NCBI GenBank assembly: GCA_036503335.1 | Contig: DASXXC010000248.1 | Location: 11,748-75,747, forward strand | From: Thermoanaerobaculia bacterium | GTDB taxonomy: Bacteria; Acidobacteriota; Thermoanaerobaculia; Multivoradales; UBA5704 | Length of the DNA stretch: 64,000 bases | Reading direction: 5' to 3' | Part shown: in pieces, positions 15,005 to 63,412 of the stretch | Position numbering within the stretch: the stretch's first letter is position 1 | How the letters are laid out: every line of letters begins with the position of its first letter | Translations under genes and position numbers: made by a program | Notes under the pieces: model-generated | What the model was told of the DNA's origin: nothing | Databases searched by the model: none | What the model saw: the letters and a program-made list of their open reading frames with translations, nothing else

Positions 15005-15300
15005 ATATAGGGAGCCCCCTCGTACTATATGGACGAGGGGTCTCCCCAAAAAGACGAGGAGTCTCCCAAAAAAGACGACCCCTCTCCCCAAAAAGACGGA
15101 GGCTCGTCCATATAGTACGAGGGGGCTCCCTATATGAACCTGGGGTCTCCCCAAAAAGACGACCCCTCTCCCTAAAAAGACGGAGGCTCGTCCATATGGT
15201 ACGAGGGGTCTCCCTATATGAGCCTGGGGTCTCCCCGAAAGGCGAGGCCTCCTCCAAAAAAGACGGGGAGCTCCCCTGAGAGGACGGGCCCTCTCCCGAA
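15005..15300. repeat. composite intergenic repeat array (33-bp perfect inverted repeat; 84-bp tandem units; phased A-tracts)
   Basis: 15005-15037 is the exact reverse complement of 15103-15135. The block starting at 15061 repeats at 15145 and, decayed, at 15229. A5-6 tracts lie at 15048, 15068, 15090, 15153, 15174 and 15256. Confidence 0.85.
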
Positions 15301-15345
15301 GCGTTGCCGCAGCCGGCCGGACAAGATCTTCTTCTCCCTCACCCC

Positions 15346-15374
15346 TTGACAGGCATTTTCCGTCTTCCTACACT
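15346..15374 (+). promoter_or_regulatory. sigma70-type promoter of groESL
   Basis: TTGACA (15346-15351), a 17-nt spacer, then TACACT (15369-15374). CIRCE follows immediately and the groES start is ~90 nt downstream. Confidence 0.6.
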
Positions 15375-15375
15375 G

Positions 15376-15402
15376 TTAGCAGTCATCGGCGGCGAGTGCT
15401 AA
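15376..15402 (+). promoter_or_regulatory. CIRCE operator (HrcA binding site)
   Basis: TTAGCAGTC-N9-GAGTGCTAA matches the consensus TTAGCACTC-N9-GAGTGCTAA with one mismatch. It is in the canonical position upstream of groES. Confidence 0.85.
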
Positions 15403-15466
15403 CAGCGGCCGCCGTGAGCCCAAATTCCCAAATCGGTCATCGAAGTCATACAAGGAGGTAGAAGCC

Positions 15467-15769
15467 GTGAATATCCGTCCGCTGCACGATCGGGTCCTGG
15501 TGAAGCGCGTCGAGCAGGAAGAGCAGGTCCGTGGGGGCATCATCATTCCGGACACCGCCAAGGAGAAGCCGCAGGAGGCCGAGGTGGTCGCCGTCGGCCC
15601 GGGCAAGCTCAGCGAGGATGGCAAGCGCTCCCCGATGGACGTCAAGGAGGGCGACCGGATCCTCATGGGCAAGTACTCCGGGAGCGAGATCAAGATCGAC
15701 GGCAACGACTACGTGATCCTCCGCGAGGACGAGATCCTGGCCGTCGTCAGCTCGAATGGCAAGAAGTAA
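15467..15769 (+). CDS. groES: co-chaperonin GroES
   Basis: 100 aa with a GTG start: [48 protein letters not shown] lies upstream. Confidence 0.97.
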
Positions 15770-15815
15770 GCACTCCTATCCAGGTTATTCATAGACATCA
15801 GGAGGTAGAGAAGAC

Positions 15816-17456
15816 ATGGCCAAGCAGATCACCTACTCCGGGGACGCGCGCGCCGCGATCCTGCGGGGTGTCAACAAGCTCGCCGACGCCGTCAAGGTCA
15901 CCCTCGGCCCCAAGGGCCGCAACGTCGTCATCGAGAAGAAGTTCGGCTCGCCGACCATCACCAAGGACGGCGTGACCGTCGCCAAGGAGATCGAGCTCTC
16001 CGATCCGCTCGAGAACATGGGCGCGCAGATGGTGCGCGAGGTCGCCTCCAAGACCTCGGACGTGGCCGGCGACGGCACCACCACCGCGACCGTTCTCGCC
16101 CAGGCGATCTACCGCGAGGGCTCCAAGAACGTCACCGCCGGCGCCAACCCGATGGAGGTCAAGCGCGGCATCGAGATGGCCGTCAAGGCCGCCGTCGAGT
16201 CGATCGACCAGATGGCCCGTCCGGTCGAGGGCAAGGACATCGCCCACGTCGGCACCATCTCCGCCAACAACGACGTCGAGATCGGCGGCATCATCGCCGA
16301 GGCGATGGAGAAGGTCGGCAAGGACGGCGTGATCACCGTCGAGGAGGCCCGCGGCCTCGAGACCACCCTGGAGGTGGTCGAGGGCATGCAGTTCGACCGC
16401 GGCTATCTCTCCCCCTACTTCGTCACCGACGCCGAGCGCATGGAGACGGTGCTGGAGAACGTCAAGATCCTCCTCCACGAGAAGAAGATCAGCTCGATGA
16501 AGGACCTCCTGCCGACCCTGGAGCAGGTGGCCAAGCAGGGCCGGCCGCTCCTCATCATCGCCGAGGACGTCGAGGGCGAGGCGCTGGCCACCCTGGTGGT
16601 CAACAAGCTGCGCGGCACGCTGCACGTGGCCGCCTGCAAGGCCCCGGGCTTCGGCGACCGCCGCAAGGCCATGCTGGAGGACATCGCGACCCTCACCGGC
16701 GGCCGGGTGATCACCGACGACCTCGGCATCAAGCTGGAGAACGTCCGCTGGGAGGACCTGGGCGACGCCAAGAAGGTCGTGCTCACCAAGGACGACACCA
16801 CCATCGTCACCGACTCCGACGACGCCAAGCGGCGTGAGGCGATCGCCGGCCGCGTCAAGCAGATCCGCAACCAGATCGAGGAGACCACCTCGGACTACGA
16901 CCGCGAGAAGCTCCAGGAGCGCCTGGCCAAGCTCGTGGGCGGCGTTGCCGTGATCAAGGTCGGCGCGGCCACCGAGACCGAGATGAAGGAGAAGAAGGCC
17001 CGCGTCGAGGACGCCATGCACGCCACCAAGGCGGCCGTCGAGGAGGGGATCGTCCCCGGCGGCGGCGTGGCCCTGCTGCGCGCCGTCAAGGCCGTCGAGG
17101 GTCTGAAGGGTGAGGGCGACGTCAAGGTCGGCATCAACATCGTCCGCCGCGCGCTCGAGGAGCCGGCCCGCCAGATCGCGGCCAACGCCGGCGAGGAGGG
17201 CTCAGTCGTCGTCAAGCAGCTCCTGTCCGACAACGGCACCAGCGGCTTCAACGCCGCCACCGGCAAGTTCGAGGACCTGGTCGCGGCCGGCGTCATCGAC
17301 CCCGCCAAGGTCACCAAGACCGCGCTGCTCAACGCGTCGTCGATCGCCGGTCTGATGCTCACCACCGAGGCCATGGTCTCCGAGATCAAGGAGAAGGAAG
17401 AGGCCAAGGGCGGTCCGGGCGGCATGCCGGGCGGCGGCATGGGCGGCATGTACTAA
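15816..17456 (+). CDS. groEL: chaperonin GroEL
   Basis: 546 aa: [26 protein letters not shown], with a C-terminal GGM repeat tail ([12 protein letters not shown]). Confidence 0.99.
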
Positions 17457-17499
17457 GACGAATTTCCTGACGGCTCCGGCCGTCGGTACAAATAAGAAA

Positions 17500-62266: not shown

Positions 62267-62289
62267 TCTCGGAATCGAAAGGAGCCGCC

Positions 62290-62466
62290 ATGGAGAGGAG
62301 CGCCAGGAAGCAGACCGTCATACCCTTGGTCATGAGCATGTTCGCCCTGTTCTTCTTTTTCCGCACGCCGGGCGCCGACACGGTGCGGTGGGTCCAGATC
62401 CTCCTCCTCTTCGTGGCCGGCATGCTCTCGGGCGTCGCTCTGGCCGGCTTTCTCAGGCGGGGCTGA
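62290..62466 (+). CDS. small two-helix membrane protein (hypothetical)
   Basis: ATG 62290 follows AAGGAG. 58 aa with two hydrophobic stretches (VIPLVMSMFALFFFF; ILLLFVAGMLSGVALAGF). Confidence 0.5.
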   Translation: MERSARKQTVIPLVMSMFALFFFFRTPGADTVRWVQILLLFVAGMLSGVALAGFLRRG

Positions 62467-62548
62467 TACAGGTGAAGGTCTACTTCAGGAGCAGGTGAAG
62501 GCGGTCGAGGAGATCTGAGTCTTCGGCCGTGAGGAGACGCTAAACGCC

Positions 62549-62797
62549 ATGAAGTCTGTCGCCCTCACAGAAGCCAAGACCCAACTCTCTTCACTGGTCG
62601 ACGAAGTCCGTGCCTCCGGAGAGCCGATCGAGATCCGCGAACGGGGGGAGCCTGCTGCCTATCTCGTGGAAGTGGAGACGTTCAAACGTCTCAGGGAAAT
62701 TGAGGACAGTGTCCGGACCGAGCAGTTGCGCAGAGACCTCGAAGGCCCAAAATACGACCTGGAAAATGTCTTGGCGAAGCTCGGTCTTTATCCCTAG
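62549..62797 (+). CDS. type II antitoxin, Phd/YefM family
   Basis: MKSVALTEAKTQLSSLVDEV..GEPIEIRERGEPAAYLV..ETFKRL. RBS GAGGAGA. Local GC is lower. Confidence 0.85.
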   Translation: MKSVALTEAKTQLSSLVDEVRASGEPIEIRERGEPAAYLVEVETFKRLREIEDSVRTEQLRRDLEGPKYDLENVLAKLGLYP

Positions 62798-62804
62798 GGC
62801 CTCG

Positions 62805-62905
62805 GTGCTCAAGCTCGATGTTCCCGATGTTCCCGGAGGCCGCATCTGGGATCGCCCGGATTGGACTCTGGTCTATCAAGTCGACGATCAGGCTGAAACG
62901 GGTGG
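62805..62905 (+). pseudogene. decayed RelE/ParE-like toxin remnant (C-terminal half only, frameshifted)
   Basis: Frame 3 reads VLKLDVPDVPGGRIWDRPDWTLVYQVDDQAET, resembling the xYRxxYxVDDxxxxVxVxxIxHR end of RelE/ParE. The matching tail ..ETVDVSRIERLL* is found 517 bp downstream at 63411-63450. Confidence 0.3.
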
Positions 62906-62936
62906 ATGTCAGCAGAATCGAGAGGCGCCCATAATC
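62893..62936 (+). repeat. direct repeat copy A (decayed gene-junction copy)
   Basis: ctgaaacgggtggatgtcagcagaatcgagaggcgcccataatc is ~80% identical to 63410-63452, with one 1-nt indel. Confidence 0.7.
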
Positions 62937-63003
62937 CTGTCCCTTTCATGCCCTCAAAGAGGATGTGAGGCCCTCGGCAGAGCCGAAAGCCTCGTCCGTT
63001 CAG

Positions 63004-63412
63004 GGAGACTGTCCGTACCACTGGGGGAATGTTTCGTCCATACTGGGGGAATCTCTCCCCGACGGGGACCATGGTCCGGCGGAGAGGGGGGCGTCTCCCC
63101 CTTTCCGGGGAACCATTCCTGGAACGGGGAGAACGTTCCGGACGCCGGGGGGAATGTTCCAACCCAGCGGGGGAATGTTCCATCGGTTTTGGGGAATGTT
63201 CCAACCTTTGGGGTGGAACATCCGTCCGAATGGGGGAATGTTCCGTCGGCTCGGATGGAACATCCGTCGTTTTGGGGAATGTTCCGTCCCTCCGGATGGA
63301 ACATTCGTCCGATTGGGGGGAACGTTCCCCCCACAGGTCGGAACGTTCCCCCCACAGGTCGGAACGTTCCCCTTTTTGGGGGAACGGTTCCCCTCCGGCG
63401 ACGGAACATCTG
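63004..63412. repeat. ~20-unit tandem array, 21-bp period, GGAAYRTTCC palindromic core
   Basis: Cores start at 63026, 63048, 63066, 63109, 63130, 63151, 63172, 63193, 63215, 63235, 63257, 63276, 63298, 63319, 63340, 63361, 63381 and 63403. Two perfect 21-mers lie at 63319-63360. Confidence 0.85.

Follow-up and report, generated by a model that had tools for sequence, protein, structure and literature searches.

The three repeat arrays in the window, by which we mean the whole 64,000-nucleotide stretch of DNA that was analysed, belong, as orphans, to a class of non-coding mini-satellites that is specific to one genus of soil Thermoanaerobaculia (Acidobacteriota). Our preferred explanation, to which we assign a probability of roughly 45%, is that these REP- and iteron-like mini-satellites have a register of two helical turns that is set by the putative binding of paralogs of AACP, our name for an uncharacterised family of coiled-coil proteins of about 130 aa with a basic tail. 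Coordinates are given in Table 1.

Table 1. Repeat arrays of the window and neighbouring features
Feature	Coordinates	Strand	Details
Array 1	15005..15300	.	family 1, 13 loci in genome; TRF, sequence, self-matches
groES promoter + CIRCE operator	15346..15402	+	TTGACA 15346-15351, TACACT 15369-15374, CIRCE 15376-15402
groES (Cpn10)	15467..15769	+	
SprT-like protein gene	46116..46931	-	downstream of array 2; PF10263, 26.8 bits, cut-off 25.6
Array 2	47090..47400	.	family 0, 18 loci, period 20-21/41
MBL-fold hydrolase gene	47396..48367	-	3' end abuts array 2
35-bp direct repeat, upstream copy	62902..62936	+	30/35 identical to 63418-63452
Array 3	63004..63412	.	family 11, 3 loci
35-bp direct repeat, downstream copy	63418..63452	+	includes AAA+ ATPase ATG (63447)
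AAA+ ATPase gene	63447..64000	+	runs off window

All three arrays exist as the sequence-only reading had described them, with sequences that agree with its cores, and the genes that it named beside them are indeed groES (Cpn10), a gene for a SprT-like protein and an AAA ATPase gene. Its periodicity was recovered by TRF, which reports repeats at 15032-15266 (periods 21 and 84), 47090-47296 (20, 41 and 19) and 63148-63372 (21, 41 and 83). Array 1 consists of about 13 units of 21 bp within an 84-bp higher-order repeat, and its cores have the form GGGGTCTCCCC + A5 + GACG. Its segments 15005-15037 and 15103-15135 are exact reverse complements of each other, and the higher-order structure and terminal hairpin of family 1 are conserved across loci. 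Array 2 directly follows the MBL-fold hydrolase gene, beginning at its stop codon, and leaves about 160 bp to the SprT-like start (46931). The cores of array 3 are GGAAYRTTCC dyads that adjoin CGTC and alternate in orientation, and the array terminates in 2.6 perfect copies of GGAACGTTCCCCCCACAGGTC (63319-63372). The array-3 block is bracketed by a pair of 35-bp direct repeats, the upstream one being a degenerate copy of the AAA+ gene's RBS and start region in which ATG has become ATA. A word that had been noticed in two arrays, CTCTCCCC-N0-5-GACGG, is exact at 15082-15099 and 63053-63065; these two matches compare with 0.14 expected, and none of 100 shuffles reaches two.

Stop-free shadow ORFs do run across the arrays, e.g., 14962-15279(+), 15003-15338(-) and 62610-63413(+). 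The arrays nevertheless encode no protein, since many have periods of 20, 41 or 83 and their codon statistics are those of non-coding DNA. No Rfam family matched at its gathering score within the window. Nor are these CRISPR arrays, in which repeats of 21-48 bp alternate with unique spacers no shorter than about 26 bp, beside a leader and cas genes; here the entire period is 21 bp, with variable segments of just 6-10 bp.

The proposal of a genome-wide class with a two-turn register was borne out by a comb of recurring 8-mers, by TRF period counts and by a census of arrays. Intergenic 8-mers across the genome recur 906, 1384, 709, 924, 699 and 593 times at lags of 21, 42, 63, 84, 105 and 126, as opposed to about 30-60 times at other lags. 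TRF reports 134 intergenic rows with a period of 21, compared with 22 for a period of 18 and 2 for a period of 24. Inside the arrays, 7185 direct-repeat lags are 0 mod 21 and 1771 are 20 mod 21, with at most 540 at each other residue. The census comprises 136 intergenic arrays in 38 sequence families, for a total of 28.6 kb. Single families recur at 3-18 loci, and the groES array is found in just three sister genomes, where it has about 5, 13 and 14 units; these results support the earlier candidate of amplifying intergenic elements. In the fragmented source assembly the class takes up no less than 0.4% of the genome, at 136 loci or more, and array density is higher in complete genomes of the genus. 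Satellite-like DNA in such quantity is rarely tolerated by bacterial genomes. The arrays also fragment short-read assemblies of these abundant soil bacteria: 24 of the 136 are in spacers cut off by the end of a contig. Related genomes, in which a check for the same class had been suggested, show the comb in all three genus genomes tested, and it is missing from all five genomes from other families of the order. We found no published description of a class in this 21-bp register.

Each unit has a short dyad or hairpin-forming core. The 21-bp units are often paired as 42-bp inverted doublets and arranged in 84-, 105- and 126-bp higher-order repeats; such doublets occur in many families, while some families are purely direct. 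Predicted folding is stronger in arrays (mean z of -3.8) than in control spacers (-0.86; p = 2e-19), and z is negative in every major family. A theme of a G-run followed by a C-run is common to many families, and the arrays have a GC content of 64.6%. The three arrays had been described as mixing G/C runs with AT words, but across the class A/T tracts of at least 4 bp are no more frequent in arrays (0.27 per 21 bp) than in other intergenic DNA (0.29), and are prominent solely in families 1, 4 and 0. Since these tracts are not class-wide, a reading in terms of AT-hook-type proteins is unsupported. Families 1 and 11 alone have CGTC/GACG at 0.66-0.71 per unit (0.15-0.25 in families 0, 3 and 4), and GTAG is depleted in arrays (1.5 vs 4.5 per kb). 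That dozens of unrelated sequences keep one and the same physical period is a pointer to a molecular ruler.

AACP, which is both co-distributed with the arrays and linked to them, is a concrete and cheaply testable candidate for this ruler. Its members have an N-terminal helical hairpin or coiled coil, a conserved YGxxSEKLxEFGxxPxRxR motif and a basic, proline-rich tail. The AF2 model (pLDDT 87.7) predicts a confident helical hairpin (residues 7-23 and 29-88) followed by a disordered basic tail. Searches of Pfam, NCBIfam, PDB and Foldseek returned no match and no recognised DNA-binding fold; one member matches PF22470 (H-NS_N) below threshold, at 19.6 bits for a cut-off of 24.5. We noticed no conserved ATPase neighbour of AACP genes. 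The family is found in 25 of 25 genus genomes (7-47 copies) and in none of 16 genomes from sister families outside the genus. It is important to emphasize that this co-occurrence with the comb is phylogenetically confounded, as it rests on a single clade.

Physical linkage of AACP genes to arrays was found in several ways. Nine of 23 AACP family members flank arrays (P = 4e-7), an array lies within 900 bp at 12 of about 30 loci found with the AACP HMM (P = 4e-9), and in six other genomes 10 of 20 AACP genes are array-linked (P = 2e-6). About 40-50% of AACP genes have a family-specific array at a fixed position, which is either just upstream of the AACP promoter or just past the stop codon. Several pairings are kept across species: C192-type genes with family 9 downstream, C143-type genes with family 12 at 32-47 bp downstream, and C348-, C243- and C219-type genes with family 0, the family of array 2, at 397-506 bp upstream. 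Among the 14 C243-type loci from named MAGs with sufficient upstream sequence, nine have a called array 297-525 bp upstream, and three more have family-0 matches at the same position. AACP-linked arrays occupy conserved positions across species, whereas orphan arrays turn over. Pairing is not strictly one to one, in that family 7 adjoins two unrelated AACP lineages and the close paralogs C69 and C267 adjoin different array families. In this fragmented assembly, 58 of 136 arrays belong to families with an AACP-linked member, and families 1 and 11, to which arrays 1 and 3 of the window belong, have none. AACP and its family-0 array have also been duplicated together as a block of about 1.3 kb, and the adjacency could reflect such a duplicating gene-plus-array module rather than binding.

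With these caveats, we propose the following mechanism. The AACP family would set the common register of all array families: AACP oligomers would bind one unit per two helical turns, the spacing of 21 bp would follow from the geometry of the coiled coil, and the core sequence would depend on contacts specific to each paralog. An array linked to an AACP gene would then be a home site, resembling an operator or centromere, and the approximately 100 orphan arrays would be dispersed copies of home sites, either selfish or serving as chromatin or termination landmarks. AACP would be a concrete candidate for the kind of partner that had been envisaged earlier, namely a DNA-binding protein sensitive to helical phase. 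A more far-reaching version, which we advance tentatively and regard as somewhat doubtful, is that this is a new protein-repeat system, in which each AACP paralog (7-47 per genome) recognises its own 21-bp-register family, forming multiplexed iteron- or centromere-like platforms across the chromosome. The two-turn spacing would be imposed by one conserved AACP geometry, with specificity for sequence free to diversify.

The groES locus illustrates how an array behaves over time. G016, G007 and G000 carry the array, with about 14, 5 and 13 units, respectively, and in the opposite orientation in G000. A direct reading of the sequences of G022, G017, G006 and G015 showed none. At these four loci the stop of the upstream ORF abuts the same promoter, except in G015, where non-repeat DNA does. 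The array caller found none beside the groES promoter in 12 other full-length congener loci; the G023 locus is uninformative, as its contig ends about 180 bp upstream. With or without an array, the promoter and CIRCE are conserved in 18 of 20 congeners, and they constitute a real conserved regulatory region that lies outside array 1. Given that most congeners have this promoter and no array, the groES array is an insertion that later expanded. In the time that species take to diverge, arrays grow, shrink and even become inverted.

These observations bear on a promoter-proximal reading in line with the sequence-only one, in which the arrays would modulate groES, the SprT-like gene and the AAA+ gene through phased binding sites or curvature. 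Arrays 1 and 3 do come to within 50-170 bp of a promoter or gene start, the upstream type of AACP-linked array lies about 100-250 bp upstream of a TTGACA-type promoter, and family 1 has phased A5/T5 tracts. However, A-tract phasing is not class-wide, the arrays have no 10.5-bp sub-period, most congeners have the identical groES promoter and CIRCE but no array, G000 and G016 carry it in opposite orientations, and array 2 abuts a stop codon. The predicted genome-wide bias toward promoters also fails, because arrays are enriched in convergent spacers (33 of 112 arrays, vs 15% of spacers; p = 8e-5), are nearer the end of the upstream gene in 44 of 60 cases in tandem spacers (p = 4e-4), and are under-represented, by base pairs, in divergent spacers (p = 0.005). 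Arrays insert mainly in gene-distal spacers, i.e., at 3' ends and in convergent regions. The comparative data already disfavour promoter modulation, and we consider it barely credible. It is also very unlikely, in our view, that the arrays are transcribed as structured ncRNAs (hairpin arrays or sRNA precursors) with AACP as an RNA-binding partner. Their predicted folding stability is high, arrays of the downstream type start 32-55 bp past AACP stop codons and so could be in 3' UTRs, and the basic tail could bind RNA; against this, no Rfam family matched, array orientation relative to neighbouring genes is mixed, and arrays of the upstream type lie ahead of the promoter. The AACP coding sequence is present in contigs of four soil metatranscriptomes and the upstream array is not seen in them, although absence from contigs is weak evidence.

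A further explanation, which we judge unlikely, is that the arrays are REP/BIME-type elements, i.e., small palindromes outside genes that HUH Y1 transposases (either RAYTs or an expanded family of 307-aa Y1 proteins) mobilise in the form of single-stranded hairpins, with the 21-bp spacing a by-product of hairpin and linker length. Any cellular effect would be at the level of RNA or DNA hairpins (3' mRNA stabilisation, termination or gyrase sites). The strong self-complementarity, the bias toward 3' ends and convergent spacers and the alternating unit orientation are all consistent with this explanation, as is the CGTC beside the dyad in families 1 and 11, and the genome has 11 PF01797 matches, with an array 275-676 bp upstream of 4 of 9 Y1-307 genes (P = 1e-5). 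However, in G006 and G015 an array lies within 1.1 kb of only 5 of 20 Y1-307 genes, where about 2.2 would be expected, and Y1-307 is abundant in genomes that lack the comb (10 copies in G032 and 11 in G036), so it does not track the class. Moreover, neither CGTC nor GTAG tags are class-wide, and hairpin length alone leaves a single period across at least 38 unrelated cores unexplained. We rejected the arrays as flanking repeats of this genome's Y1/RAYT transposases: the classical RAYTs (C85 and C94) have unrelated TIR/REP elements of their own on their flanks, and the Y1-307 genes, including five near-identical copies that are mostly without any array, are unbracketed. Finally, all families might form a neutral satellite library, derived from one ancestral 21-bp tandem repeat by mutation and concerted evolution and spread by recombination or slippage, with no dedicated protein and with AACP adjacency as hitch-hiking in duplicated segments. 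Perfect recent duplications (63319-63372), higher-order repeats, degenerate units at array edges, fast turnover between sister species, the duplicated block of AACP and family 0 and the shared G-run and C-run theme would all fit. We nonetheless find such a library distinctly unlikely: placement beside AACP genes is family-specific, fixed and conserved across species while orphan arrays turn over, the AACP-array enrichment was replicated in independent genomes, self-complementarity is kept in every family, and, although the cores have diverged completely, the period remains sharp at 21 or 20, which argues for constraint.

If AACP does bind, the system would offer a new model for the co-diversification of repeat families and their binding proteins, and paralogs that bind cognate arrays would be a natural library of orthogonal pairs of protein and DNA array. 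A protein-repeat system of this kind could function in chromatin organisation or transcription insulation, or as a new type of selfish element made of gene plus site. If AACP does not bind, the REP/BIME concept is still extended to Acidobacteriota, in an unusual quantised form.

Among known systems, AACP resembles H-NS, Lsr2 and MvaT in its size (120-140 aa), and may share with them an N-terminal coiled-coil oligomerisation module ahead of a short, basic stretch with many R-G/P-R. Genes of the H-NS type have structured DNA upstream of their own promoter. The C-terminal domain of H-NS-like proteins has a Q/RGR minor-groove motif and prefers AT-rich DNA. By contrast, the AACP C-terminus is predicted to be disordered, with an R-G/P-R resemblance at the level of the motif only and no such folded DNA-binding domain, and AACP has no significant sequence or fold match and 7-47 paralogs per genome, beside arrays that are GC-rich and have no excess of A/T tracts. 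The arrays themselves resemble REP/BIME and REPIN-RAYT elements of Enterobacteria, Pseudomonas and Stenotrophomonas, as they are short imperfect extragenic palindromes in many copies, biased toward gene 3' flanks, in regularly spaced clusters of alternating orientation, with several families per genome and a home gene with cognate repeats. They differ in that the units are 21 bp rather than about 35-40 bp, with the period quantised over at least 38 families. A conserved unpaired GTAG/CGTC tag is not general here, there is no cognate single-copy RAYT flanked on both sides, RAYTs and other Y1 genes are not array-flanked, and the product of the array-linked gene is no transposase but a small, non-enzymatic protein with a coiled coil. 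Families 1 and 11, with CGTC beside a small dyad, are like the CGTC-tagged REPs that include Neisseria dRS3/NIME. Such REPs have no transposase dedicated to them and can occur in large clusters (Di Nocera et al. 2013, PMC3733652). The described examples have stems of 8-9 bp with A/T first pairs and are mostly head-to-head dimers, and neither cases in Acidobacteria nor a common 21-bp register or associated protein family have been reported for them (PMC3733652).

The arrays also recall plasmid iterons and partition centromeres, being tandem direct repeats at about two helical turns (21-22 bp), or at about 42-43 bp with an internal dyad. The iterons of R6K and pPS10 are 22 bp, the sopC repeats of SopB are 43 bp, and parC-ParR is a partition centromere system. 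Such systems have one or two arrays per replicon, proteins with winged-helix, RHH or HTH folds, and NTPases or initiators as partners, in contrast to the more than 100 chromosomal, mostly orphan arrays seen here and to AACP, for which we saw no recognisable DNA-binding fold or partner ATPase. What may also be shared is the pairing of system-specific repeats with paralogous small proteins, here putative binders, and the location of an array directly upstream of the protein's own promoter.

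To tell repeats in coding sequence apart from those between genes, we built a gene caller based on codon statistics and applied it to the source genome (G000; 7.02 Mb in 420 contigs, 68.6% GC, with the window at C248:11748-75747), obtaining 5331 genes and 86% coding sequence. With TRF run on the whole genome, 284 rows have period 21, versus 144 and 87 for periods 18 and 24. Among intergenic rows, there are 134, 54 and 24 at periods 21, 42 and 84, and 48 and 19 at periods 20 and 41, versus 22 and 2 at periods 18 and 24. Exact 8-mers in the 1.0 Mb of intergenic DNA recur 906, 1384, 709, 924, 699 and 593 times at lags of 21, 42, 63, 84, 105 and 126 bp, respectively, over a background of roughly 30-60; we refer to these peaks as the comb. 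We defined 136 intergenic arrays (median 195 bp, summing to 28.6 kb), in which 7185 direct-repeat distances equal 0 mod 21 and 1771 equal 20 mod 21, with at most 540 for each other residue. Grouping by BLAST yields 38 families, with sizes of 18, 13, 13, 12, 11, 8, 7, 7 and 5, then smaller. Since periods of 20, 41 and 83 are frequent and the arrays' codon statistics are non-coding, an origin in heptad-repeat proteins is ruled out. The literature that we searched contained no description of such arrays in Thermoanaerobaculia or Acidobacteria.

The sequence-only reading had proposed that three arrays in the window represent a genome-wide class sharing a two-turn register, and the intergenic TRF rows, the comb and the 136 arrays bear this out. 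Its sequence-level observations were also correct overall, including the TRF periods (Table). The cores that it described are present, and the arrays adjoin groES, a SprT-like gene and an AAA ATPase gene. The common word CTCTCCCC-N0-5-GACGG occurs exactly at both positions claimed for it (0.14 expected), and stop-free ORFs traverse the arrays on both strands.

Coordinates of arrays and associated features (C-numbers are contigs of the source genome)
Feature	Location	Remarks
Array 1	window 15032-15266	TRF periods 21, 84; family 1 (13 loci)
Array 2	window 47090-47296	TRF periods 20, 41, 19; family 0 (18 loci)
Array 3	window 63148-63372	TRF periods 21, 41, 83; family 11 (3 loci)
Fourth array on C248	C248:7567-7776	family 4; period 42/84
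35-bp direct repeat, first copy	window 62902-62936	ATA replaces ATG
35-bp direct repeat, second copy	window 63418-63452	includes RBS and ATG of AAA+ gene
Array with flanking duplication	C259:6331-6615	family 1
ORF remnant	window 14792-15010 (+)	contains ..LAHAWIERQGIPVGE..RFAPL..
282-bp tandem repeat	window 11117-11649	1.9 copies
Family-5 element	C219:2275-2366	
Family-5 element	C205:17218-17306	
Box and hairpin 3' of AACP gene	C69:18270-18460	
Box and hairpin 3' of AACP gene	C243:21868-21990	
Box and hairpin 3' of AACP gene	C348:15724-15830	
Box and hairpin 3' of AACP gene	C267:32034-32170	
RAYT-type gene	C85:10352-11206	
RAYT-type gene	C94:700-1535	above NCBIfam REP-transposase cut-off
Y1-307 copy	C204:2501-3421	near-identical set (87-92%)
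Y1-307 copy	C29:13522-14442	near-identical set
Y1-307 copy	C264:18217-19137	near-identical set
Y1-307 copy	C212:39817-40737	near-identical set
Y1-307 copy	C143:35994-36914	near-identical set

Units contain small dyads, e.g., GGGGAGACCCC, GGAAYRTTCC, GGCTCACCGGAGCC, TTGCAAGCTTGCAA, GGGCG-N4-CGCCC and CCCCGGCG-N6-CGCCGGGG, and are frequently laid out as 42-bp inverted doublets and 84-126-bp higher-order repeats. Family-1 loci have in common a five-unit higher-order repeat, with degenerate units at one end and, at the other, a conserved terminal hairpin and a tail of about 25 bp. A/T tracts are not a class-wide feature (0.27 per unit, versus 0.29 in other spacers, with no 10.5-bp sub-period), and we therefore rejected A-tract curvature or AT-hook phasing as a property of the class. 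Family 5, represented by the two loci in the Table and six others, consists of 20-bp units (ACACGGACTGACACGGAC...) in two head-to-head halves. It has a 10-bp sub-repeat and the strongest predicted folding of all families (z = -8.9), and may be a separate kind of element outside the 21-bp class.

Several further features were observed in or near the window. The fourth array on its contig, about 4 kb before the window start, has the core CCCCGGCG..CGCCGGGG with TAAAAA. A block of roughly 480 bp that contains array 3 is flanked by a 35-bp direct repeat (30 of 35 positions identical), and a comparable 25-28-bp duplication flanks a family-1 array on C259. These two cases are exceptions; target-site duplications are not general, as a search of array flanks gave 5 long matches versus about 1 expected, mainly degenerate units. 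The 282-bp tandem repeat, inside a gene for a 1287-aa protein, reflects the repeated fibronectin type III domains encoded there; it is ordinary coding repetition, unconnected with the arrays.

To characterize placement, we considered the 112 arrays in spacers that have a gene on both sides. Convergent spacers, which account for 15% of spacers (p = 8e-5) and 18% of spacer bp (p = 0.002), hold 33 of these arrays, and divergent spacers, with 28% of spacer bp, hold 19 (p = 0.005). Where the flanking genes are co-directional, 44 of 60 arrays are closer to the 3' end of the upstream gene (p = 4e-4). Arrays are a median of 86 bp from an adjacent gene end, versus 236 bp from an adjacent gene start.

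On promoter proximity, comparison of the groES locus among relatives is decisive. The orthologous locus, which we retrieved from 20 congeners, has a conserved TTGACA-17-TACACT promoter and CIRCE operator. Only the closest relatives, namely G016 (about 14 units), G007 (about 5) and G000 (about 13, oppositely oriented), have a family-1 array separating the upstream ORF from this promoter. In G022, G017 and G006, whose sequences we read directly, the stop codon of the upstream ORF adjoins the promoter and there is no array, and in G015 a different, non-repeat sequence adjoins it. The array caller found none beside the promoter in the remaining full-length congener loci; the G023 contig ends about 180 bp upstream. 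Because most congeners retain the promoter and CIRCE without an array, the groES array is a recent insertion that was then expanded or contracted and inverted, and not a conserved regulatory element. The ORF that is full length directly 5' of groES in congeners persists in G000 only as a C-terminal remnant, apparently truncated beside the array insertion. Metagenome runs were uninformative as to array-length polymorphism because Logan contigs break within the array. In four metatranscriptomes with groESL words in common, only conserved groES fragments map, and the G000 organism is not contained.

Promoter proximity, which the sequence-only reading had attributed to the arrays, therefore fails, given the genome-wide convergent and 3'-end bias, the groES loci of congeners and array 2, which starts at an MBL-fold hydrolase gene's stop codon. 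That interpretation was thus half right: the class, its amplification and the two-turn logic stand, but the promoter role does not.

Clustering of array-flanking genes revealed one standout family, 9 of whose 23 members lie beside arrays (P = 4e-7). We call these small coiled-coil proteins AACP. They are 120-140 aa long and helical over the N-terminal two-thirds, with the conserved motif YGxxSEKLxEFGxxPxRxR and a tail that is basic and rich in proline. AlphaFold2 confidently predicts a helical hairpin (helices 7-23 and 29-88; pLDDT 87.7), after which come a short helix and a disordered tail. There was no match in Pfam, NCBIfam or PDB by sequence, nor in PDB by Foldseek; one member has a sub-threshold match to the H-NS N-terminal domain. 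All database homologues are annotated as 'hypothetical protein', and their sources are Thermoanaerobaculia or soil metagenomes. With an HMM, about 30 AACP loci are found in G000, and for 12 of them an array lies no more than 900 bp away (P = 4e-9). In six other genomes an array is within 700 bp of 10 of 20 AACP genes, versus about 1.8 expected (P = 2e-6).

The association also involves particular AACP types, which we name by contig. Of 14 C243-type genes that come from named MAGs and have sufficient upstream sequence, 9 have a called array 297-525 bp upstream, and three further such genes have family-0 matches at that position. Family 0 is found 397-506 bp upstream of C348-, C243- and C219-type genes (three cases in G000, two in G017 and one in G003), family 12 is 32-47 bp downstream of C143-type genes (twice in G000, and in G017), and family 9 is downstream of C192-type genes (G000 and G017). 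Pairings are inconsistent for family 7 and for C69 versus C267, and in G000's fragmented assembly no AACP gene is linked to family 1 or family 11. As far as these sequences indicate, the pairings of AACP type with array family are specific and conserved. Arrays upstream of AACP genes are situated about 100-250 bp before a TTGACA-type promoter, itself ahead of a leader of about 200 nt. On the 3' side of four AACP genes (Table) is a conserved TTGACAA-like box, then a GC-rich hairpin with a T-run, which could be a terminator plus outward promoter, or a small RNA gene.

We sampled 120-400 kb from each of seven relatives for the comb. It is clear in both congeners tested, G006 and G015, where the on/off ratio is about 2.2-2.3 for lags that are multiples of 21 and about 3.3 for lags of 20, 41, 62 and 83. 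Five genomes of other families in the same order lack it (ratio 0.4-1.4 at the latter lags), and four of these have no TRF rows at periods 41-43 or 83-85. AACP genes occur in every one of 25 genomes of the genus, at 7-47 copies, and in 0 of 16 genomes of other families in the order. The comb divides the genus from the other families in the same way; the co-occurrence comes from a single clade. The organisms are Thermoanaerobaculia / Acidobacteria gp7 represented by soil MAGs. Turnover is quicker for individual families than for the class: family 1 is confined to the three genomes closest to G000, and arrays in G006 and G015 have other cores.

The arrays thus form a class with a two-turn register, self-complementary units, a bias to gene 3' ends, quick turnover and, within the sample tested, restriction to one genus, and this class is linked to AACP genes both statistically and positionally. 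We infer that AACP paralogs are candidate array binders that would set the register. If so, one protein geometry would account for one period in unrelated cores, and some 30 paralogs would account for dozens of array families.

Alternatively, a Y1 enzyme might move the arrays in a REP-like, hairpin-based manner. Families 1 and 11 carry CGTC tags, reminiscent of the CGTC-tagged REPs that Di Nocera et al. (PMC3733652) described, and G000 has 11 PF01797 matches. Two of these are genes of the classical RAYT (REP-associated transposase) type, each flanked by its own elements, unrelated to the arrays. The C85 gene is bracketed by an inverted three-hairpin element of about 100 bp that has about 22 dispersed copies, and the REP of the C94 gene is GCCGGCG-N4-CGCCGGC. 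We rejected such REPs as array units, as the sequences differ, though 21-bp arrays are often close by (within 1.5 kb for 8 of 22 copies), suggesting that the two share permissive spacers. A 307-aa HUH/Y1 transposase family, Y1-307, has 9 full-length copies, 4 of them with an array 275-676 bp upstream (P = 1e-5), but arrays do not bracket these genes. The association is weak in G006 and G015 (5 of 20, versus about 2.2 expected), and the family scores 56.8 bits on the RAYT model, under the cut-off of 80. Five copies are near-identical and share conserved flanks of about 80 bp (5') and 230 bp (3'), and for this reason Y1-307 looks like an active IS-like element. Across the order, 38 of 41 genomes, including comb-less ones, have 2-26 diverged paralogs; copy number fails to track the comb, and Y1-307 was rejected as a sufficient driver of the arrays. 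REP/RAYT membership therefore fails on two defining features.

The arrays might instead be a neutral satellite library, with AACP genes adjacent by hitch-hiking. Among paralogous family-0 modules, homology extends from about -840 to +500, counted from the ATG. Terminal inverted repeats that would enclose AACP-plus-array modules were rejected, being short and present at only 2 of 21 loci. A further alternative is a role at the RNA level. The predicted single-strand folding energy has a mean z of -3.8 in arrays versus -0.86 in 120 control spacers (p = 2e-19), and z is below zero in every major family. Rfam gave zero family matches, array orientation relative to neighbouring genes is mixed, and in four soil metatranscriptomes contigs cover the coding region of an AACP locus, with its upstream array uncovered.

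The link to AACP genes is new to the libraries and literature that we searched. In some of the features that define membership, the arrays differ from REP/BIME elements and from iteron or centromere arrays, yet they resemble both, sharing palindromic units and a 3' bias with the former.
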